In this document: positions 50,654-61,682 of the stretch, piece after piece
Layout of the letters: each line of letters begins with the position of its first letter
How positions within the stretch are numbered: position 1 is the stretch's first letter
DNA from: Candidatus Latescibacterota bacterium
GTDB taxonomy: Bacteria; Latescibacterota; CBDEFO01
Reading direction: 5' to 3'
Length of the DNA stretch: 64,000 bases
Assembly (NCBI GenBank): GCA_965248755.1
Contig: OZ252149.1
Location: 1,024,001-1,088,000, forward strand
The notes under the pieces: model-generated
Seen by the model: only the letters and a program-made list of their open reading frames with translations
Told to the model about the DNA's origin: nothing
Databases searched by the model: none
Position numbers and translations under genes: made by a program

Positions 50654-51532
50654 TTAGCGAAGCGCTTCGCAGAGTTCTTCAAAGGTGTCCGCTACGAATA
50701 CTCCCGCCTCACGCAGGGCCTTCGCCTTGCCTCGAACGGAGCCGCGTCCTCCTTCGACAATCACTGCGGCATGTCCGAACCGCATGCCTTCCATATCATC
50801 CACGAAACGGCCGGACAAAAATGCGATGATGTGCAGTCGACTCGGCTTCTTCCTTAGCCGCTCTGCCAGCTCCTCCTCCGCGGAGCCGCCGGGTTCCCCA
50901 TAGATAACGACGGAGTCCGTGCGCGGATCGTCTTCGAGCAGTTCGATAAGATCTCTGAAATCGGAACCGACAATCGAGTCCCCACCAACACCGATCGCTA
51001 TGCTCTGGCCGATGCCGCGACTCGATAAGTAGCTGGCGATCTCCGTAGTCATGCCCCCGCTACGGGAGAGGATGGCTACACGACCCGGAGTGAACGAACG
51101 GCGTGTATTGTCGATGCGCCCTCCGATGGTGCCCAGTTTGACGATGTTCGGACGGATGAGCCCAAGCGTATTGGGGCCGATGACTCTGCAGCCCGCGTCC
51201 CCTGCCGCGACCAGTAATCTGCTCGTGTCCAGGCGCGGTACCCGTTCGGTCATGATCATACAGAGCCGAATACCGGCTGAGAGGGTTTCTAATGCTGCGT
51301 CCAGCACGGCGGGAGCCGGCACGGAGATGATGCTGACGGTCGGATGCCACCGATCGACGGCCTCCGCAACCGTATCGTACACAGGCACCCCATGAACGCT
51401 CTGTCCGCCCTTTCCGGGCGTTACACCGGCCACAATTCTGCTCCCGTAGGCCAGCGAGTCCTCCACCATCCCCCTCGCCTCTCTGCCTGTGATTCCCTGA
51501 ACGACAATTCCCGCCTGTGGGTCAAGCAACAT
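50654..51532 (-). CDS. Succinyl-CoA ligase alpha-like subunit
   Basis: VQGITG, GVTPGKGG, IGPN, SRSGG, phospho-His RFGHA. Confidence 0.88.
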   Translation of the reverse strand: MLLDPQAGIVVQGITGREARGMVEDSLAYGSRIVAGVTPGKGGQSVHGVPVYDTVAEAVDRWHPTVSIISVPAPAVLDAALETLSAGIRLCMIMTERVPRLDTSRLLVAAGDAGCRVIGPNTLGLIRPNIVKLGTIGGRIDNTRRSFTPGRVAILSRSGGMTTEIASYLSSRGIGQSIAIGVGGDSIVGSDFRDLIELLEDDPRTDSVVIYGEPGGSAEEELAERLRKKPSRLHIIAFLSGRFVDDMEGMRFGHAAVIVEGGRGSVRGKAKALREAGVFVADTFEELCEALR

Positions 51533-52721
51533 GATCCATATTTCCTTCCACGGCCAATCTGGCGGCCTCATTCAACGATACGTCGCGCCCCTGCGCCTTG
51601 ATCCCAGCCGTGGCCATGATCTCCTGCGCCTCCTGTTCCCACGAGCCGGGCACGCGAAAGACACTGATGGTATCGGAAGGGTTTCTCCCCGCCCTCTCAA
51701 TTCCCATGAGAACCCCGCGGGCCATGACATCTGAACGAGTGTTGTTGACCACATTCATAATAACGGCCATCCGCTTAACTTCTGGTTTGGATAACAAAAG
51801 CGCACTTAAAGCGGCCACCTTCTCCTCGGTCGGGTTTCCCCCCACCTCACAGTAGTTGGCGGGTCTCCCCCCATAGAGCTTGATCGCGTCGAAAACGGTC
51901 AGACTGGCGCCGCCCCCACCGATAAGCAGGGCCATGTCGCCGTCAAATTCCACAAGGCGGCCTGCGACACCTCGGTGATCCATTGCATCGATGCGCTGTG
52001 CCTCAAGCTCCAAAGGCGTTGGAGGGCGACCCGTTGCGCTCTGCGTTAGATCACCTAACGGTTCTAATCTTTTATTCTGCCGATATGCAGCGTCGTCCTC
52101 AATTTCCACGTGCGCATCGAGGCCCACCGAAGCGCCATTTTCGGCAATAACCAGAGGATTAATCTCCATAGTGACCCCATCGCATGCCAGGAAGGCTTCG
52201 GACAGCGTTGCGAGGACCTCTCCCAACCGGACGAGCGTTTTCCCCCTCAGGCCGAGTTGGGACGCCATCCCTCGTCCTTCATACGGCGCAAGCCCCCTCC
52301 ACGGATGAAACGAACGGCGTACAAGACGATCTGTCGGGGAGGATTCGACATCGACCCCGCCGCTGGGACTCAACAGGGCAAGGGGCAGCTTTTCTACCGT
52401 GTCCCAGGCGATGCCGACATAGAACTCCTGATTAAAATGCAGCTTGGGTTCAATCGAAACCCTCCCCACCCTGGTGCCGCGCAATTCCATTCCAAGCAGC
52501 TCCCCGGCGCCGGCTTCCACTTCGTCCAAGGTCTCCGCGAACTTCACCGCCCCGGCTTTACCGCGTCCGCCGAAAGGCACCTGCGCTTTGAGAACGGCGG
52601 GCAGCCCGACGCCCTCCACGGACGCCCGCACCTCCTGAAGGGATTCAATCACCTTCTGTTCGGTGAAGACCAGACCGAAGCTTGAGAGCAGTTTCCTGCT
52701 TTGATGTTCGAGCAGTCTCAT
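51522..52721 (-). CDS. Succinyl-CoA ligase beta-like ATP-grasp subunit
   Basis: LLEHQ, KAQV..GGRGKAG, EINPL, GGGGAS, PANYCEVGGNP. Confidence 0.88.
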   Translation of the reverse strand: MRLLEHQSRKLLSSFGLVFTEQKVIESLQEVRASVEGVGLPAVLKAQVPFGGRGKAGAVKFAETLDEVEAGAGELLGMELRGTRVGRVSIEPKLHFNQEFYVGIAWDTVEKLPLALLSPSGGVDVESSPTDRLVRRSFHPWRGLAPYEGRGMASQLGLRGKTLVRLGEVLATLSEAFLACDGVTMEINPLVIAENGASVGLDAHVEIEDDAAYRQNKRLEPLGDLTQSATGRPPTPLELEAQRIDAMDHRGVAGRLVEFDGDMALLIGGGGASLTVFDAIKLYGGRPANYCEVGGNPTEEKVAALSALLLSKPEVKRMAVIMNVVNNTRSDVMARGVLMGIERAGRNPSDTISVFRVPGSWEQEAQEIMATAGIKAQGRDVSLNEAARLAVEGNMDHVA

Positions 52722-53587
52722 CTCATCATCTCGTGCAATCTGAGAACTCGTCGGGCCCGCTCCACGATCGGCAGATCGACCATCTGGCCTTCCACCACGA
52801 GCGCCCCTTGTCCTGCGGCCTCCGCCTTTCCGAAGGCCTCCACCACACGTTGGGCGTATTCCACCTCATCGGCAGTCGGAGAGAAGACATCGTGAACGGC
52901 CTCGATCTGGCTCGGGTGAATCAAAGCTTTGCCCGTAAAGCCGAGCTGGCGGGCCCGGCGTGCATCCGCAAGGAGCCCGTCCGGATTCTGGATATTCGCG
53001 TAGATTCTGTCTACAACCTGAAGTCGCTGGCTGACCGCTGCGACGACGAGGGCCGAGCGGGCGTAGACCATATCTGTGGCCTCACCATCCCGGAGGGCAA
53101 AAATCCCCAGATCCAGGGCGAAATCTTCCGCTCCAAACATCAGCCCGACCAGTCGCGGACAGGAGGCCGCGATAGCGGGCGCCTGAATGAGCCCGCGGGA
53201 GCTTTCAATTGTAGCCAGCAGTCGAACGCTTCCAGGTTGGAGTCCGGACCTGGATTCCTGTTCTCTCAGAGTCGCGTCGACTGCAATCACGTCTTCGGGA
53301 CATTCCACCTTGGACAATGTCAATCCATCCAACCCGGGTCTAACGGCGGTCTGCAGATCCGCATCCGTCTCAGCGCTCCCGGCGGCGTGGATGCGGACAT
53401 AGCGGGACGGCCCGCCTGGAGGACGCCCAAGGGCCGCAGCCACCAGATCCCGGGCGGCATCCTTCTCGGCGGGAGGCACACCATCCTCCAGATCAAAGAT
53501 CGCGACATCCAGCTTCAGGGCGAGAGCCTTATCGATCATCCTACTCCGATGCCCGGGCACGAACATCCAAGACCGCATAATCTGCAT
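52718..53587 (-). CDS. CoA-ester lyase (CitE/malyl-CoA lyase, HpcH/HpaI family)
   Basis: RSWMFVPG, DLEDGV, IES, FGAEDF, GKALIHPSQ, MVDLP. Confidence 0.92.
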   Translation of the reverse strand: MQIMRSWMFVPGHRSRMIDKALALKLDVAIFDLEDGVPPAEKDAARDLVAAALGRPPGGPSRYVRIHAAGSAETDADLQTAVRPGLDGLTLSKVECPEDVIAVDATLREQESRSGLQPGSVRLLATIESSRGLIQAPAIAASCPRLVGLMFGAEDFALDLGIFALRDGEATDMVYARSALVVAAVSQRLQVVDRIYANIQNPDGLLADARRARQLGFTGKALIHPSQIEAVHDVFSPTADEVEYAQRVVEAFGKAEAAGQGALVVEGQMVDLPIVERARRVLRLHEMMR

Positions 53588-53606
53588 ATATACCCACTTT
53601 CCTTTT

Positions 53607-54233
53607 TTATCTGCGCGCGGAACCCGCCTGTTGCAGCGATGCACCGTAGCGTACCAGCCGGACACCAATCCACAACCCCATCAGAGCGCCGGCCCCTATC
53701 AGGTATCCCAGCCATACCGGCACCAAACGGTCGATGGGAATCACCTTCGGCAGGAGCAACTGCGTAGCCATCTGGCGCCACGCTTCCATAGTAGGCCCTT
53801 CGCCCCCTGGGCCAAGGGTTGCCGTCAGCATCCGCTCCGTCGACCACATAGATCCGTAGTATACCAAGATACATATGCCCGGCAGGAAAGCTAACAACCA
53901 GAATGCAGCCCTCAAGCCGCTGTTCTTACGGAGAGAATAGAAGAATAGCACCGACGGAACGATCCCGAATAGGACTACGGCTCGTCCAAATCCCGAAAAG
54001 AAGGTGATGAGCAGCAACACACATAGACAGAGCCCGATGAATATCCACCCGTTCAGAACATATCTAGCTGATGTGATGTAGCAATGCCCTGTTTTCCGCT
54101 TTTTCTCGATAAATTCGACTATCCGCTCTTCGAGGGGTGTGCCCGGCTTTGGAGTTTCCCGCGAAATCTCGTAACCCAGGATTTCTCTTTCACGGGCCTT
54201 CTCGTGACGCTTTCTGGTGTTCTCCCTGTCCAT
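53607..54233 (-). CDS. Hypothetical membrane protein
   Basis: About 4 hydrophobic segments. Confidence 0.5.
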   Translation of the reverse strand: MDRENTRKRHEKAREREILGYEISRETPKPGTPLEERIVEFIEKKRKTGHCYITSARYVLNGWIFIGLCLCVLLLITFFSGFGRAVVLFGIVPSVLFFYSLRKNSGLRAAFWLLAFLPGICILVYYGSMWSTERMLTATLGPGGEGPTMEAWRQMATQLLLPKVIPIDRLVPVWLGYLIGAGALMGLWIGVRLVRYGASLQQAGSARR

Positions 54234-54934: not shown

Positions 54935-54991
54935 TTGACATTGCTAAAACTTTTTCTTATATTCTATATACCCTCAGGGGGTGGGGGTATA
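54935..54991 (+). promoter_or_regulatory. Promoter plus CsoR/RcnR-type operator
   Basis: TTGACA-N17-TATATT followed by TATACCC...GGGGGTATA G/C-tract inverted repeat (54967-54991). Confidence 0.75.
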
Positions 54992-55007
54992 AACGAAAGG
55001 AAACAAG

Positions 55008-55304
55008 ATGATCGAAGAAATCAAGCTAATCTCACAAGATCGCAAGGACCAGACAATAAGACGCCTTAAATCTATTGAAGGCCAGATGAGAGGATTACAG
55101 GGCATGATAGAAAAGGAGCGCCCTTGCGTGGAGGTACTGACCCAAATAGCAGCGGCAGAGGAGGGTCTAAAGCAGGTGGGAAAGATTATGATGAGAAACT
55201 ACCTGGAAAACTGTGTGACCAATTCCATCAGGTCGCAAGATGGCCAAGAGGCTGATAGAATATACGACGAGTTGATGGACATTATCTACAAGTTTGCGAG
55301 GTAA
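55008..55304 (+). CDS. CsoR/RcnR family metal-sensitive repressor
   Basis: RRLKSIEGQMRGL, CVEVLTQIAA, NYLENC. Confidence 0.92.
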   Translation: MIEEIKLISQDRKDQTIRRLKSIEGQMRGLQGMIEKERPCVEVLTQIAAAEEGLKQVGKIMMRNYLENCVTNSIRSQDGQEADRIYDELMDIIYKFAR

Positions 55305-55351
55305 TAAAATGTCAAAGGGTCTTAGGAGTAATCTTTAGGAAGGAGGTATAT

Positions 55352-56299
55352 ATGAAAAGATACATCATTTTATCATCCATTCTGTGCTCTGTTGTTCTTC
55401 ATATGGTTTATCCAAAGGGGACATTGGCTCAGGGGCCACCGATCAACACCGAGACAGCGTTCGTGGTCGGTCTTGAGGGCGCCGCGCTCAGGACACTCGT
55501 TAAAACGACGAGGAAATCGAAGCTTTTAAAGGGCACCACGAAAGTCTCTGATCCTTCAGATCGACAAGTACAAGTTGTGGCTGTTCCTATTATAATTCCC
55601 TACGAATTGATTCCAAACAGAATAGTGGTCGCCGCAGCGATTCCCTATCTTCACAAGGAACTGAGTCTGACTCAGGACGGGATAAGACGTGCTCTGTCTG
55701 ACAACGGCTTTGGGGATCTTTCTCTCTTATTCAAATATCAACTCCTTCAATGGGACGCTCATCGAAAGACGACCAGAATTACGTTTAAGGGAGGGCTGAA
55801 ACTTCCCACAGGCGACCACGATGAGACGGATGAGTTGGGCGAACTTCTCCGCAGGGGGCTACAATTGGGAACGGGCTCCCTAGATTACTCAGCCGGGCTT
55901 ATCTTAACTCACAGCGTAGGCAGACTCGGGATCAACACAGACGCCATCTACACATTCAAAAGGGAGGCGGACAAGTACAGATTTGGAGACTCTTTAAATT
56001 ACGATCTTGCGGTCGGATACAGGATCTATCCTTCGGTCTATGAGACTTATCCATCGCCTTATGCCACTCTTTATTTAGAGGTAAATGGTCAGTTCAAACG
56101 AAGGGATGAGGAAAATAGAGGGACAGTCGAGGACTCAGGCGGACACATTTTGTCTCTCTCACCTGGGATACAATACATCCCTTTGAGCACATTAATCATC
56201 GAGGCATCGATACAGATTCCTGTGCTCCAGGACCTGAACGGAACTCAACTCGGGACGGACTTTGCCTTTGTAAGCGGGATTCGATGGCTGATCTTTTAG
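55352..56299 (+). CDS. Outer-membrane beta-barrel transporter (MetA-pathway-like)
   Basis: Signal peptide; GFGDL, KLPTG, LGTGSLD, LSPGIQ; C-terminal F. Confidence 0.7.
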   Translation: MKRYIILSSILCSVVLHMVYPKGTLAQGPPINTETAFVVGLEGAALRTLVKTTRKSKLLKGTTKVSDPSDRQVQVVAVPIIIPYELIPNRIVVAAAIPYLHKELSLTQDGIRRALSDNGFGDLSLLFKYQLLQWDAHRKTTRITFKGGLKLPTGDHDETDELGELLRRGLQLGTGSLDYSAGLILTHSVGRLGINTDAIYTFKREADKYRFGDSLNYDLAVGYRIYPSVYETYPSPYATLYLEVNGQFKRRDEENRGTVEDSGGHILSLSPGIQYIPLSTLIIEASIQIPVLQDLNGTQLGTDFAFVSGIRWLIF

Positions 56300-56347
56300 T
56301 CCGAAACTCAATATTAACCTGCAATGTTGAAAGGAGGTCGTTTCAAG

Positions 56348-56893
56348 ATGACGGTAAAAAGAATTCTTTCTTTGCTGCTCTCAGTTACTATTGTGTCGGC
56401 TGTACCTGTGGAGAGTCCGGCTCAGATAGAAGAGGCTACAGTTAAGGTGGACGGTCTTTCGTGCCCTTTTTGCGCCTACGGCTTGGAGAAGAAGCTCAAG
56501 AAAGTAGAAGGAGTTGAGAAGTTAGAGATCAAAGTGGATCAGGGAGTAGCCAAACTGACTGTAAAGGAGAAAAAGAACCTCTCCATCGAAGATGTAAAGA
56601 AGGCTGTGGTGAACGGCGGCTTTACCCCAAGAGAAATCGCGATTACGGTTAAAGGCCGTATGTCCGAGCATAATGGCAGAACAGTTTTAAAGTTTGCAAA
56701 GAACGCGAATGTCTTTCTGATCGCTCAGAACGAGCAGTTGAAGAAGGTCAAGGATGCGCTCAAAGGGCAGGACAAGCTCCTTCGGATAACTGGCACGCTC
56801 TCCAAGGAAAAAGTCGAAGGCCATGGGGAGCACCCTTATGTCCTGTCTATTGAACAGTTCAAGATGCTGTCCTCTACTACCAAGGTGAATTAG
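56348..56893 (+). CDS. Exported heavy-metal-associated (HMA) domain protein
   Basis: Signal peptide; VDGLSCPFC, GGFT. Confidence 0.88.
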   Translation: MTVKRILSLLLSVTIVSAVPVESPAQIEEATVKVDGLSCPFCAYGLEKKLKKVEGVEKLEIKVDQGVAKLTVKEKKNLSIEDVKKAVVNGGFTPREIAITVKGRMSEHNGRTVLKFAKNANVFLIAQNEQLKKVKDALKGQDKLLRITGTLSKEKVEGHGEHPYVLSIEQFKMLSSTTKVN

Positions 56894-56894
56894 A

Positions 56895-57713
56895 ATGATG
56901 AAGGCAAAGGAATCAAGCCTGACAGCTATCCTTGCGGCACTGCTGGTGGTCTGGACGGTTTCACCCGTTCTGGCGCACGAGCCCCTGTTTGGGGTCGGGC
57001 CACACACCATCTATCAGAACGGCCTGGGGCTGGAGATGGAGCTCGAAGTCGAAGATGAGGAGGTATCCGTTCACAACGAGGCCATCTATGGGGTCACGCC
57101 CGACCTGGCTGTGACCCTGGTGGCCCCCTGGGTTCGGAAGGAGGAGGGGAATAGGTCCATCTCTGGACTGGGGGACATCAGCCTGCGGGGGAAGTGGCGC
57201 TTCTTCCGGCGGGACGGAGCGGGTCGGCAGGACGCCCTCGCCCTGGTCTTCGGTGCAAAGTTTCCCACCGGAGACGAGCAGGCGGAGATGCCTCTGGGGA
57301 CCGGATCGACTGACTTTTTCGGTGGGATCGCCGCAGGCCGGGAGTCGCGCCGGTGGTACTACTTCGGCGACCTGCGCTACCGGGCCAACACAGAGGCGGA
57401 CGGTCTGAGGCAAGGGGACATCTTCTTCTATGACGTGGCCTGGGGAGTGAGACCGGTGCGGGCGGGTTATGAGCAACCTGACCTGGTGCTCCTGGTGGAG
57501 ACCAATGGAAAGATCGCGGGGAAGGCCGAACAGGATGGCGTCACAAACCCCAACACAGGGGGACATGTGCTCTCAGTCTCGCCCGGATTTCTCTTCAGCA
57601 TCCGGAACGTGATGCTCAAAGGGGGGATCAATGTCCCTGTCCTCTGGGATCTGAACGGAGTACAGGAGGACCCAGAAACCGAGATTCTGTTCGGTGTGGA
57701 GTTTCATGTCTAG
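56895..57713 (+). CDS. Outer-membrane beta-barrel transporter (MetA-pathway-like)
   Basis: Signal peptide then HEP; GLGDI, KFPTG, LGTGSTD, VSPG. Confidence 0.7.
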   Translation: MMKAKESSLTAILAALLVVWTVSPVLAHEPLFGVGPHTIYQNGLGLEMELEVEDEEVSVHNEAIYGVTPDLAVTLVAPWVRKEEGNRSISGLGDISLRGKWRFFRRDGAGRQDALALVFGAKFPTGDEQAEMPLGTGSTDFFGGIAAGRESRRWYYFGDLRYRANTEADGLRQGDIFFYDVAWGVRPVRAGYEQPDLVLLVETNGKIAGKAEQDGVTNPNTGGHVLSVSPGFLFSIRNVMLKGGINVPVLWDLNGVQEDPETEILFGVEFHV

Positions 57714-57729
57714 TAGAGGAGGCAGAACC

Positions 57730-58514
57730 ATGCGAAAGATCGTGTTTATCTTGATAGTAGTCGCCCTGATGGCCGGGCTGAGTGTGCCGGTGCAGGCAGG
57801 TGTGAAATCTCTGACACTGAAGGTGGATGGACTTGCCTGTCCCTTCTGCGCTTACGGCATGGAGAAGAAGCTGAAGAAGGTAGAAGGGGTTGAGAAGCTT
57901 GAGATCGATCTCGACGGAGGGACGGTGACTCTCAAAATGAAGGCGCGCGTCCGTCTGACAGCCGCCTCAGAGGGAAAAGAAAAGGCCCCCGCAGGTCTTG
58001 TGGCACAGGTGCAGAAAGCCGTAACAGAAGGTGGCTTCACGCTACGAGAGTTGACGGTAACGGTGGAAGGGCAGGTGGTAGCCCAGGAAGGAGTATTGCG
58101 TCTACGGCTGTCCGGGACAGAAGAGATCCTTGTCCTAAAGGAAAATGGGAAGGTAGCTGATCTGAAGAAGGCGGTCTCAAACGGGTCAGTGACTTTAATC
58201 GGCACTCTGCAGACGGAGGACCCGATGCTTACCTTATCCGTCGAACAAGTCAGTGAAATGTCCGTTATGGAAGGCGAAGTTCATCGCCTGAAGGTCTCAG
58301 GCATGGTCTGCACCGGGTGCGCGGATGCGATCAAGGCTGCCCTGGAGAGGATCAGCTGGGTGCAGCAGCAGAGGTCGATCTGGAGCAGGGGCTGGCCCAG
58401 GTTACGGCCGCGGCAGGCAGGGTCTCTGCAGAGCAGCTCGTCGAGGCCGTCAACGGGATTGCGATGAGTGGGATGCCTGAAGGGACGTTCCAGGCATCGG
58501 TGGTGGAGGAGTGA
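57730..58514 (+). CDS. Exported protein with two HMA domains, frameshift near 58362
   Basis: VDGLACPFC and VSGMVCTGC; adding one G continues into AAAEVDLEQG..LVEAV. Confidence 0.8.
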
Positions 58515-58560
58515 AGAGTTAGAAAGCTGTGATAAGAGAGAAAAAGAAGATATTAGAACG

Positions 58561-58839
58561 ATGAAGATAAAGTCATCGAGCCTGATGGCCCTTCTTGCGG
58601 CACTGTCCTGGTGTTGAATAGTGCCTGCGATCTTTGCCCTGCTCGGCTTAGCAGGGGTAGCTACTGCAAGGTTCCTTGCGATAAAGTTTTATCCTTTCTT
58701 GCTTACTCTGTCTGTCCTGCTTTTGGCAAGAGCGCACTATCTGGTGTACGTAAAGCGGCACGGGCACAGACTGAGCGTGCTTGTAGTATGGGTCTCCACC
58801 GCCTTGGTGATCGCCGTGTGGCTGCCAAGGATACTTTGA
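58561..58839 (+). CDS. MerT-like membrane protein, probable selenoprotein (TGA 58615-58617)
   Basis: MKIKSSSLMALLAALSWC(U)IVPAIFALLG..YPFLL; three TM segments; downstream hairpin. Confidence 0.7.
58637..58656 (+). promoter_or_regulatory. Candidate bacterial SECIS hairpin
   Basis: CCCTGCT-CGGCTT-AGCAGGG; loop begins about 27 nt after TGA, with G at second loop position. Confidence 0.55.
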
Positions 58840-58852
58840 CAAGGGAGAGATT

Positions 58853-59794
58853 ATGAGACCAGCAAGTTTGTTCCTGATAATATTGATCCTTTCGACAGGC
58901 CATCTTTACTGTTCCAAAGAGGACAAACTGCAATTCGTCTTCGTCCAGAAATGGGGAACAGAAGGAGAAATGCCAGGGCAGTTCCAGGGCCCTATAGGGA
59001 TCGCTGTTGACGATGTCGGAAGTGTCTATGTCTCCGACAGTGGGAACAATCGCATTCAAAAGTTTGACAGAAAGGGCAATGTCTTAGCCGAGTGGGGAAA
59101 AGATGGTGATGCCCTAGGAGAGCTTGCGCGTCCCATGCATATTGAAATGAAGGATAGTAAGCTCTATGTGGCAGAATATTTCAACGACAGGATACAGGTT
59201 TTTGATCCTTCTGGGAGTTTCATTGGGGCTATCGGTTGGCACCAAAAGGAGGGCGGCTATTTTGACGCCCCGGCGGGCGTATCTGTGGACAGCCAGGGGA
59301 ATATCTATGTAGCTGATTTCTACAACCACAGGATAGAAAAGTTTGATAGAAATGGCGAATTCGTACGTCAATGGGGAGATCACGGAGAAGGCGACGGACA
59401 ATTTAATTATCCCACCGATGTAGCTGTCGGTTCTGACGGTACTGTCTACGTGGCCGACGCCTACAATCATAGGATTGTCAAGTTCACGCGTGAAGGGCAA
59501 CTTCTTACGAGCTGGGGAGGTTACGGAACAGATGAAGGCAGGTTCAACGTGTCCACCGGTATAGGCTTAGACGGAAAAGATAGGATCTACGTAGCGGATT
59601 TTTACAATCACCGCATCCAGGTCTTTGGCAGCGATGGACACTTCCTTCTCCAGTGGGGAAGGCAGGGGAACGGCGACGGCAGGTTCGAACGTCCGACTGA
59701 CGTGGCAACAGACAAGGACGAAAACGTCTACGTAACAGATTGGGGGAATAATCGTATTCAGAAGTTCCGAGTCGTCAAGCAGGTGACAGAGTGA
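58853..59794 (+). CDS. NHL-repeat six-bladed beta-propeller, exported
   Basis: Repeats GQFxxPxGIAVD..YVADxxNxRIQKF; N-terminal signal with Cys. Confidence 0.92.
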   Translation: MRPASLFLIILILSTGHLYCSKEDKLQFVFVQKWGTEGEMPGQFQGPIGIAVDDVGSVYVSDSGNNRIQKFDRKGNVLAEWGKDGDALGELARPMHIEMKDSKLYVAEYFNDRIQVFDPSGSFIGAIGWHQKEGGYFDAPAGVSVDSQGNIYVADFYNHRIEKFDRNGEFVRQWGDHGEGDGQFNYPTDVAVGSDGTVYVADAYNHRIVKFTREGQLLTSWGGYGTDEGRFNVSTGIGLDGKDRIYVADFYNHRIQVFGSDGHFLLQWGRQGNGDGRFERPTDVATDKDENVYVTDWGNNRIQKFRVVKQVTE

Positions 59795-60056: not shown

Positions 60057-61682
60057 CCGACATTCCCCATATCACATTCATGAGGGATTATATTTCGATA
60101 CATTCTTGTTTCTGAATTAATATTACCACTTTTACATTTTTCAACAAGTACTTTTTTCAATTAAAATAGTATTTTCCTCTGAATTATCACTTTCTTTGTG
60201 TTTAAATCCTCCAATTAGAGACACCTCTCCATCGACTCACAAAAAAATGTGGCAGTTTAAACAGAATAACATCGCAATCGTTCAATCCGGGATAATATTT
60301 CGGCAAATAACCTCTTGTCTATCCCAACCTCAGCCATTTGAAACGTAATATATCCGCTGTGTCTGACAATCTTCGCTCCGATTTTGATAAATTTCACGAG
60401 GAGGCTGCGTAGTGACCAGTGTTTGATTTTCTTCGGAAGAACAAAACGTCGCAGGAAGTTGCCCAAGTTGTAAGCCAGAACAAACAGCCAGAGCCTCACC
60501 TGATTGGAGACGAAACGCTTGCATGAGAGTCGGGTCCAGTTCAGAGCATACTTGCCCTCCTTAATCCACTGCTCAGCTCTGCCACGGCCATTGTAGAAGT
60601 GTACCACGCCTTCTGGCTTGGCGCTCATGTTGGTCACGATAAATCCCACTCTTGGGAATAACTCCCCTTGGTGCCATTCAACCTTGGCGACCACTCGCCT
60701 CGATTGATCCCAACTGGCCGCTTTATATTGAAATTCATATAACGATACAATCGGTTTCCTCGGCGGTCGTCCAACTGGCCGAGTCAGCAGGTATCGTATC
60801 TTTTCATAGAGTATCTCATTTGCGGGAAGCCGAATGGCATACAAATAGCCGTTTCCCTCCAGATAATCATAAATCTCAGGCTTTGCGAATGCAGCATCGC
60901 CTCGAAAGTATTTCCTATTCTTCTTGCTCTCGTATCTCTTGACGATCGGTTCCAGAACTTCCTTCCAACGATCAGCACTGTGAACATTACCAGAGCGAAG
61001 TAGGACTCCTTCACAATCCCCGAACTGATTGAAGCAGAACACTGGATGAAAACAGGTACATCCGAAATGACCGTTGTAAGCTGATCCTTCCTGCTGGCCA
61101 TGTACCGGACTCTCCGAACTGTCCATGTCCAGAATGATTCGTTGATGCTGTGTTTTACTCATCGCTTTTTGAACCCACTTGCCATTGATATCTGACAAGT
61201 TTCTGAGATTGTCATGCTGAGTCAGTATATCAGTTTCAAAACGTCCTATCGTGTTGGAGCTGGCAGCTTGCCTGCCTTTGTCCTTCTTTCCGGTAATCGC
61301 TCGCATGACGGGATCAACGGATAATCGCTCGGCGTCATTTACATCTTCATATCCTGCAAGACGGCTGTATATCGATTGACGCAGGAGAGTAGATATATCA
61401 TGTTGGATATTACGGCCTGTGCGTTTATCGGTAAAAACCGCTGATACCGAATCAAATAATCCCAGTGCGTAATCAAGGTCACGATACGCAAGAAGTCCAC
61501 CGTTTGATGTCACCTTTGCACCATGAAATTCAAGCTTTATTCCTCCATCAAAACCTACTTTGATTCTTTCACCCTCTGGATGATCAATATTTATCCGCCA
61601 TTTATGAGTCTTATTTATTGTAATATAACATGTTCTGGCGACTTTGACAACCATTTTTCGGGTCTAATATGGCGAATGGGGG
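60057..61682 (-). mobile_element. IS1380 family element, copy 2 (1626 bp)
   Basis: Reverse complement of copy 1; flanked by TATAT duplication. Confidence 0.95.
60257..61654 (-). CDS. IS1380 family transposase
   Basis: Identical to copy 1 except ERMK to ERIK. Confidence 0.93.
   Translation of the reverse strand: MVVKVARTCYITINKTHKWRINIDHPEGERIKVGFDGGIKLEFHGAKVTSNGGLLAYRDLDYALGLFDSVSAVFTDKRTGRNIQHDISTLLRQSIYSRLAGYEDVNDAERLSVDPVMRAITGKKDKGRQAASSNTIGRFETDILTQHDNLRNLSDINGKWVQKAMSKTQHQRIILDMDSSESPVHGQQEGSAYNGHFGCTCFHPVFCFNQFGDCEGVLLRSGNVHSADRWKEVLEPIVKRYESKKNRKYFRGDAAFAKPEIYDYLEGNGYLYAIRLPANEILYEKIRYLLTRPVGRPPRKPIVSLYEFQYKAASWDQSRRVVAKVEWHQGELFPRVGFIVTNMSAKPEGVVHFYNGRGRAEQWIKEGKYALNWTRLSCKRFVSNQVRLWLFVLAYNLGNFLRRFVLPKKIKHWSLRSLLVKFIKIGAKIVRHSGYITFQMAEVGIDKRLFAEILSRIERLRCYSV

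Follow-up and report, generated by a model that had tools for sequence, protein, structure and literature searches.

We analysed a putative metal operon at positions 54935..59794 of a 64,000-nucleotide stretch of contig OZ252149.1 from a Candidatus Latescibacterota bacterium (hereafter the window); all features of the operon lie on the forward strand. Its seven open reading frames, whose coordinates are given below, are separated by gaps of 1–48 bases. This spacing suggests that they form a single transcript, encoding in order a CsoR-family repressor, a predicted outer-membrane barrel (barrel 1), a protein with an HMA domain (HMA-1), a second barrel and a second HMA protein (barrel 2 and HMA-2), a small MerT-like membrane protein and an NHL propeller. 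The hydrophobic N-termini of the HMA proteins and the NHL propeller indicate that these are probably exported. An earlier reading of the region made without database searches (the sequence-only reading) had proposed this gene content downstream of one promoter and one operator with G/C tracts. All seven genes were confirmed, and both regulatory elements were recovered. The promoter TTGACA-17-TATATT (54935..54963) agrees with the sigma-70-type consensus at 11 of 12 positions and is kept in the homologous locus of the same genus (L002); the nearest relative, from this genus, is 93% identical. There are 13 sigma-70-type sites in the region and 5.0 in shuffled sequences. Since the spacer is 17 bp long, the promoter is not of the long-spacer MerR type. 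The inverted repeat TATACCC-N11-GGGTATA (54967..54991), with its G tracts, resembles the operators of the CsoR family and overlaps the likely start site. A looser form, ATACCC-N2-13-GGGTAT, has five copies in the 4.54-Mb genome, two of which precede the two csoR-family genes, and the same whole-genome pattern scan found none before copA. The RNA fold of the whole region is no better than that of shuffles (z 0.11).

The repressor (55008..55304) belongs to the CsoR/RcnR family (PF02583, 1e-23) and has the fingerprint Cys-Tyr-Cys. When aligned to 2hh7, 4m1p and 5fmn, it keeps both Cys of the Mycobacterium tuberculosis CsoR, while His61 is replaced by Tyr and Tyr35 by Pro. Cu(I) sensors of this family are defined by Cys-His-Cys plus Tyr, and persulfide sensors by x-C-x-C (according to PMC4235346 and bioRxiv 10.1101/2021.07.25.453692). 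The repressor lacks the combination required for Cu(I) sensing (Cys-His-Cys ligands and a second-shell Tyr) and carries the x-C-x-C fingerprint of the CstR persulfide sensors. Family scans of the operon revealed no sulfide-detoxification genes, the HMA domains giving only a sub-cut-off score for the TusA fold. The Tyr form heads all four CsoR-led cassettes (4/4). It is possible that this Tyr-substituted two-Cys CsoR represents a new sensor type, which the uncharacterised clusters of bioRxiv 10.1101/2021.07.25.453692 may already include. A second CsoR-family operon of this genome (G000:C1:3119877-3121433) has the His form, its own operator and no merA; it also encodes a MerT-MerP fusion with both Cys pairs and a zinc-binding CopZ-like protein. 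The version of that operon in G009 bears extra genes, among them an exported HMA protein.

Both barrels are predicted outer-membrane channels. Barrel 1 (55352..56299; PF13557, 1.6e-13) is of the COG4313/PF13557 type, and barrel 2 (56895..57713; PF13557, 4.7e-10) falls in a second subfamily; their scores of 51.7 and 40.4 bits exceed the gathering score of 22. Of 8000 sequences that were scored, 1330 are related to barrel 1 at E ≤ 1e-40. A weak profile match to FapF (E 0.016) was also obtained. The COG4313 channels are associated with hydrophobic solutes and described in PMC4493636 as uptake channels. The sequence-only reading had placed an outer-membrane channel at the start of a thiol/selenol relay running through periplasmic chaperones to an inner-membrane carrier. 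We found no conserved Cys, His or Met among 58 aligned sequences of the barrel-1 family. Hence, the barrel cannot belong to such a relay, and this part of the proposal fails. The barrel-2 family keeps His28 at the predicted mature N-terminus (12 of 14 sequences) and His271 near the C-terminus (15 of 15). The barrel-1 gene of the same-genus genome is frameshifted (L002:4963-5970).

HMA-1 (56348..56893) combines a hydrophobic leader, an HMA domain with the motif CPFC (PF00403, 2.3e-7) and an unassigned C-terminal domain with GHxxHP. Profile search of this last domain gave no match in the PDB, and its Atlas matches were all below 0.9. The CPFC motif is invariant (75/75 sequences). The HMA proteins score 35.6 (HMA-1) and 52.9 bits on the MerP model TIGR02052, below its cut-off of 92.55, and they score as high on CopZ models, or higher. 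HMA-2 (57730..58514), which also matches PF00403, consists of a CPFC HMA, a linker domain and a second HMA with CTGC. In the assembled sequence it is not the intact double-HMA protein that had been expected, because one base is missing near 58367 relative to two intact homologues, through a genuine deletion or an assembly error; the second HMA is thus cut after its CxxC (CTGC), an in-frame stop lies at 58467, and the shifted tail ends at 58514. Homologues are intact in L008, L011 and L115. A 54-nt direct repeat, with copies at 56889..56942 and 58552..58605 that are 80% identical, brackets barrel 2 and HMA-2, whereby barrel 2 begins with a duplicate of the beginning of the MerT-like gene. Barrel 2 and HMA-2 also have a higher GC content (0.61 and 0.57) than the other five genes (0.46–0.52), and the same-genus locus has neither, HMA-1 there directly joining the MerT-like gene. 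Barrel 2 and HMA-2 are an insert.

The MerT-like membrane protein (58561..58839) has 92 residues and an in-frame TGA at codon 19 (58615-58617), next to Cys18. Its best family is MerT NF033560, at 50 bits for a cut-off of 130, and it has no Pfam hit. Residues 18 and 19 align with the CC pair of its homologues and correspond to the vicinal pair in helix 1 of the MerT family. The pair reads as Cys-selenocysteine (CU) in this genome, G009, G038, G040, L005 and L087. L006 and L092 read as double selenocysteine (UU), while L013, L023, L025 and L034 have CC; L020 has lost the pair. We rejected a nonsense mutation: the TGA occurs at the same position in eight forms across phyla, the frame is otherwise intact, and the genome has the selenocysteine (Sec) machinery: selA and selB both exceed their cut-offs, and tRNA-SeC is present along with a SelD motif of the Sec type. 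A hairpin resembling a selenocysteine insertion sequence (SECIS), with a 7-bp stem and the loop CGGCUU (58637..58656), starts 19 nt past the TGA. Its pairing is kept in 32 of 35 cells across five TGA forms, a level that 58 of 500 shuffles reach; in four Cys forms only 10 of 28 cells pair. The TGA forms of L006, L087 and L092, left out of this alignment, fold differently. In a tree of 95 rows, quickly built from few columns, the seven TGA forms are scattered (76/500 shuffles are equally clustered). The TGA very likely encodes selenocysteine, as the sequence-only reading had it. The UU forms have two adjacent TGA codons at the metal pair (L006:8491-8790, L092:782-1105), and in G040 the Sec-containing MerT-like gene has a frameshift (L129). 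Further likely selenoproteins of the genome are a UxxC redoxin-like protein, a UPLC-motif protein and SelD (G000:C1:3585095, 3726182 and 4363037).

A Sec-containing MerT is not new by itself. A small group of MerT-family selenoproteins with CU, proposed to contact heavy metals, is mentioned in bioRxiv 10.1101/2022.07.06.499078, and putative mercuric transport selenoproteins are tabulated in PMC2398784 and PMC13188914. Together with the MerT/CopZ fusion selenoprotein NF045683, these share with the protein studied here the Sec in a MerT-like vicinal pair and a Sec-competent genome. They differ from it in that ours belongs to a 92-residue subfamily lacking NF045683 or PF02411 hits, labelled hypothetical or truncated in databases, and including UU forms. 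The association with barrels and an NHL protein is a further difference, unmentioned in the available portion of bioRxiv 10.1101/2022.07.06.499078. A protein search with the single sequence returned zero matches. A profile search with the family gave 111, of which we kept 108 (P0002-P0109), the last three being canonical MerT. Among these relatives, 85 of 108 have CC somewhere in residues 1–55; of the remaining 23, the majority begin just past the pair, as truncated gene calls would. As in the protein here, there is no further Cys in 83 of the 85 relatives with CC. Hence, the cytoplasmic Cys pair (C76/C82), included in the MerT model (PMC5715351), is absent. The putative inner-membrane carrier of the sequence-only reading lacks this pair and is optional across homologous loci (see below).

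The last gene (58853..59794) encodes a protein with a hydrophobic leader and a six-bladed NHL beta-propeller, identified by a family match and by a structure model (six blades, pLDDT 91.8) whose best structural match is 6xg7 (TM 0.86). Its conserved residues include Met95 (64/70), Tyr186 (70/70), Tyr109, Phe156, Tyr204 and Phe250, and no Cys.

We then analysed gene order in other genomes. Searches with HMA-1 retrieved 18 genome loci. In 14 of them the CPFC-HMA gene has a barrel gene as neighbour, and in 10 an NHL gene (at least 46% identity) is adjacent as well; the other four are weak matches to ordinary csoR-copA loci. For metagenomes we used an alignment of the NHL protein, chosen to avoid selecting on the metal motif, and retained the best 80 of 534 confirmed loci, which form 65 groups at 90% NHL identity. 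Twenty groups extend for 2 kb to either side of the NHL gene; a barrel occurs within 3 kb in 20 of these, an HMA protein in 19 and all three genes in 19. With 2 kb on one side, barrel and HMA protein are found in 38 of 45. Because the query was built from NHL proteins beside HMA-1 homologues, this synteny marks a dedicated NHL subfamily and not NHL proteins at large. The neighbourhood search suggested by the sequence-only reading thus showed conserved synteny, and the conserved unit is a widespread core of barrel, CPFC-HMA and NHL. We rejected the seven-gene order as the conserved unit, since order varies and barrel 2 and HMA-2 are an insert. A plasmid-borne resistance cassette was also rejected, as barrel 1 has no plasmid match; a homologous barrel gave nine weak plasmid records and, of three examined, two have an adjacent HMA gene and none an annotated NHL.

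The regulators and neighbours of these cassettes point to soft metals, as the sequence-only reading had supposed. We walked upstream in 79 loci, after dropping 16 duplicates and four unrelated ones; 49, many of them short, have no regulator in reach. A leading regulator is present in 30 of the 79 (26 of MerR type and four CsoR). At the start of helix alpha-5, Cys characterises Hg/Pb/Cd sensors and Ser characterises CueR, as given in PMC11672702. The Cys is found in 21 of the 26 leading MerRs, and three-Cys regulators of the MerR type thus head most cassettes in which a leading regulator was seen. Neighbouring genes were labelled from our own clustering, in which only representatives were checked. 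MerT/MerF/MerC-like genes occur in 14 of the 25 groups of at least 10 kb (long groups) and in 25 of the 65 groups overall. The routine presence of a standard merA or copA partner, which would have counted against the sequence-only reading, was seen in part of the loci only: a complete merA in eight of the 25 long groups, a P1B ATPase in two, either in nine and neither in 16 (a further merA-like gene, cut by the end of its locus, is excluded). This led us to reject the absence of reductase and ATPase as a defining trait.

Several other genes recur near the cassettes. P1B ATPases with YPC replacing CPC adjoin it in L003:1424-4837, L007:2410-4866, L015:1401-3908 and L051:11632-14025, the one of L015 being under a Tyr-form CsoR. 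A small thioredoxin-like protein with six Cys (CxxC, CxSC, CC), absent from the window, is encoded at L010:3577-3849 and in 18 further loci, in many cassettes with the MerR gene on one side and the HMA gene on the other. DsbD/CcdA-like genes are inside many homologous cassettes, and ArsM-like and radical-SAM-like genes occur within about 10 kb in L008, L061, L068, L113 and L138.

We searched for the reductase and the ATPases at the genome level too. Family scans of the seven genes turned up no merA and no P1B ATPase, and no MerA over cut-off exists in the single-contig, 98% complete genome. The best match (319.8 bits for a TIGR02053 cut-off of 454.45) is a lipoamide-dehydrogenase-like protein without the C-terminal CC. 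Hence, the claim that MerA is missing holds for operon and genome, while the claim on ATPases holds for the operon only: elsewhere the genome encodes a CopA-type and a ZntA/CadA-type P1B ATPase, with copA about 0.63 Mb away. The mercury methylation protein HgcA had no match in the genome; MerB had none either, in a search whose control also matched nowhere. In 168 genomes of the own phylum (nine candidates scored per genome), eight carry the HMA protein and two merA, and both merA genomes are among the carriers (Fisher p 0.002, although kin are not independent). Six of these eight carriers, including this genome, lack merA. Carriers from other phyla have merA in six of ten cases, on other contigs, giving eight of 18 carrier genomes overall. 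The general rate is 7.8% of genomes in PMC8261052. The cassette is mer-associated, yet commonly reductase-free. That it is always a mer accessory was rejected, given the carriers without merA in the own and in a second phylum.

Compared with known systems, the operon resembles mer operons (Tn21/Tn501) in having an exported CxxC HMA protein, as MerP (TIGR02052), and a small membrane protein with a helix-1 pair, as MerT (PF02411; NF033560, RC607-type); moreover, MerR leads homologous cassettes, and merA is often their neighbour. In contrast to mer operons, it lacks MerR, the long-spacer promoter and merA, its MerP and MerT scores are below cut-off, its HMA protein has an extra domain, and its MerT-like protein carries Cys-Sec but lacks the cytoplasmic pair. 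Beyond the mer parts it has COG4313 barrels and an NHL propeller, which make up the constant core. With CsoR-CopZ-CopA operons (x-C-H-C, Tyr35/Glu81) it shares a CsoR-family repressor, a G/C-tract operator and the HMA chaperone fold, but the fingerprint His is Tyr and the Tyr is Pro, the chaperones have leaders and there is no CopA. Similarity to the channels Pput2725, TcpY, SphA and FapF consists of PF13557 scores over cut-off, whereas the known COG4313 channels serve aromatic, lipid or amyloid traffic and no metal-regulated context was found for them in the literature searched. Nor did that literature, which included few subscription papers and no supplements, describe the core (NHL, COG4313 or PF13557 with mer or heavy-metal context), in agreement with the view that the architecture is undescribed. 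It appears to be an undescribed variant of MerP/MerT-type handling that would work like a mer front end and, by gene content, is neither a mer nor a cop operon.

We propose, with a probability of about 45%, that the cassette is a metal-induced envelope trap for soft metals of the Hg(II) type, which would be bound in the periplasm and membranes and cleared without reduction. The CsoR-family repressor, with only two Cys ligands, would be released by a two-thiolate soft-metal ion, and the genes would answer metal excess. Regulation by efflux-type sensors, established for CsoR and most MerR, argues for a response to excess and not for nutrient uptake. The exported HMA proteins would bind the ion through CPFC, as MerP does. 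Metal species that are neutral or lipophilic (HgCl2, metal thiolates, organomercurials) may cross the outer membrane through the barrels; in merA-less hosts they would probably move outward or into the membrane. The MerT-like protein, with only its helix-1 pair (here Cys-Sec), could act in the membrane as a sink of very high affinity, or it could leak metal at low flux and so signal its presence to the sensor in the cytoplasm. In the weakest step, the NHL protein is a likely membrane-anchored periplasmic partner for docking or ligand binding through its Met/aromatic face. Where merA adjoins, the same parts could feed MerA. The identity of the metal, its direction, export and every contact between parts are what we infer from the genes. 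Capture is favoured because the constant parts are periplasmic or in the outer membrane, the inner-membrane carrier is optional and lacks the hand-over pair, and COG4313 prefers hydrophobic solutes. The cassette also persists without a reductase, in six of the eight carriers of the own phylum and in all five further carriers of a second phylum, and this is easier to reconcile with capture than with import. Cells become more sensitive when import occurs without MerA.

Several observations weigh against this proposal. In a second phylum (301 genomes) there is no enrichment in merA: the barrel occurs in six genomes, merA in 29 and both only in the seed genome (1/6; p 0.46); one of the six carriers has the barrel alone. 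Of the leading MerRs, two belong to the monovalent type, with Ser or Ala at alpha-5, one is misaligned and two are unclassified, and the three-Cys MerR class also includes Pb and Cd sensors. The x-C-x-C form of the repressor is that of persulfide sensors in characterised proteins, copper genes (CopA, CusA/B, multicopper oxidase) neighbour several loci, and all characterised MerT-family proteins are importers in PMC5715351. Frameshifts (HMA-2 here, barrel 1 of L002, the MerT-like gene of G040) permit decay or assembly error, and covariation of the SECIS hairpin alone is not significant (58/500 shuffles).

Import is the alternative that survives best, and we consider it unlikely. The cassette would be a mer front end carrying Hg(II) or organomercurials via the MerP-like and MerT-like proteins to MerA, orphaned here by loss of merA or never having gained it. 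The accepted path MerP-MerT-MerA, the description of COG4313 proteins as uptake channels, the merA genes beside eight of 25 long loci and the excess of merA in carriers (8/18 versus 7.8% generally) all fit, and the frameshifts and an adjacent transposase fit decay. However, neither merA nor P1B ATPase is in view at 16 of 25 long loci, merA is missing in ten of the 18 carrier genomes and in the five further carriers, and 83 of 85 MerT-like relatives lack the cytoplasmic hand-over pair. The Sec codon and the hairpin are also retained in the same-genus genome, itself merA-less.

Handling of copper, silver or gold is quite unlikely. The repressor would sense Cu(I) or Ag(I) through two Cys in linear coordination, with the HMA proteins as periplasmic CopZ-like chaperones serving the CopA of this genome or Cus-type pumps. 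This would account for the CsoR-family regulator and operator, for CopZ scores equal to or above those for MerP, for potential ligands (NHL Met95 with its aromatic face, the barrel-2 His pair, GHxxHP of HMA-1) and for the genes that neighbour some loci (CopA, P1B ATPases of the YPC type, CusA/B or multicopper oxidase). Yet the equivalents of His61 and Tyr35 are absent, 21 of 26 leading MerRs have the divalent-type Cys, P1B ATPases occur at two of 25 long loci, and the copA of this genome has no such operator. Very unlikely is a response to non-cation thiol stress (CstR-like sensing of persulfide or polysulfide, or of trivalent arsenicals, with scavenging by envelope thiols and selenols), for which speak the x-C-x-C form, the six-Cys thioredoxin-like and DsbD/CcdA-like genes of many cassettes and the arsenic methyltransferase-like genes near L008, L061, L068, L113 and L138, but the operon has no sulfurtransferase or persulfide enzymes, cassettes are mostly under metal-type MerR, and HMA and MerT folds are metal carriers.

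A broader form of the envelope trap is doubtful. The core would be a stand-alone, reductase-free defence of the Gram-negative envelope against mercury or organomercury, and its COG4313 channel would be the first outer-membrane component dedicated to soft metals. In this lineage it would be switched by a new Hg(II)-sensing, two-Cys Tyr-CsoR clade and equipped with a Cys-Sec or Sec-Sec membrane trap. If true, such a defence would explain how many uncultured merA-less bacteria cope with or accumulate mercury. The mer model runs from the periplasm to MerA, with neither an outer-membrane component nor a propeller, and mercury handling in bacteria without merA is listed as an open question in PMC8261052. 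A metal-regulator-led cassette with a channel for hydrophobic solutes, with or without merA, is a candidate for both gaps. A single membrane metal site that occurs naturally with CC, CU or UU also provides a series for testing the contribution of selenium.

Finally, we note the genes flanking the operon. A DDE transposase (PF13701; window 60257-61654, reverse strand) follows closely downstream; the same-genus locus lacks the region that contains it. Upstream, also on the reverse strand (window 50654-53668), a high-GC (0.60) succinyl-CoA-synthetase-like pair and an HpcH/HpaI-family lyase are unrelated to the operon.

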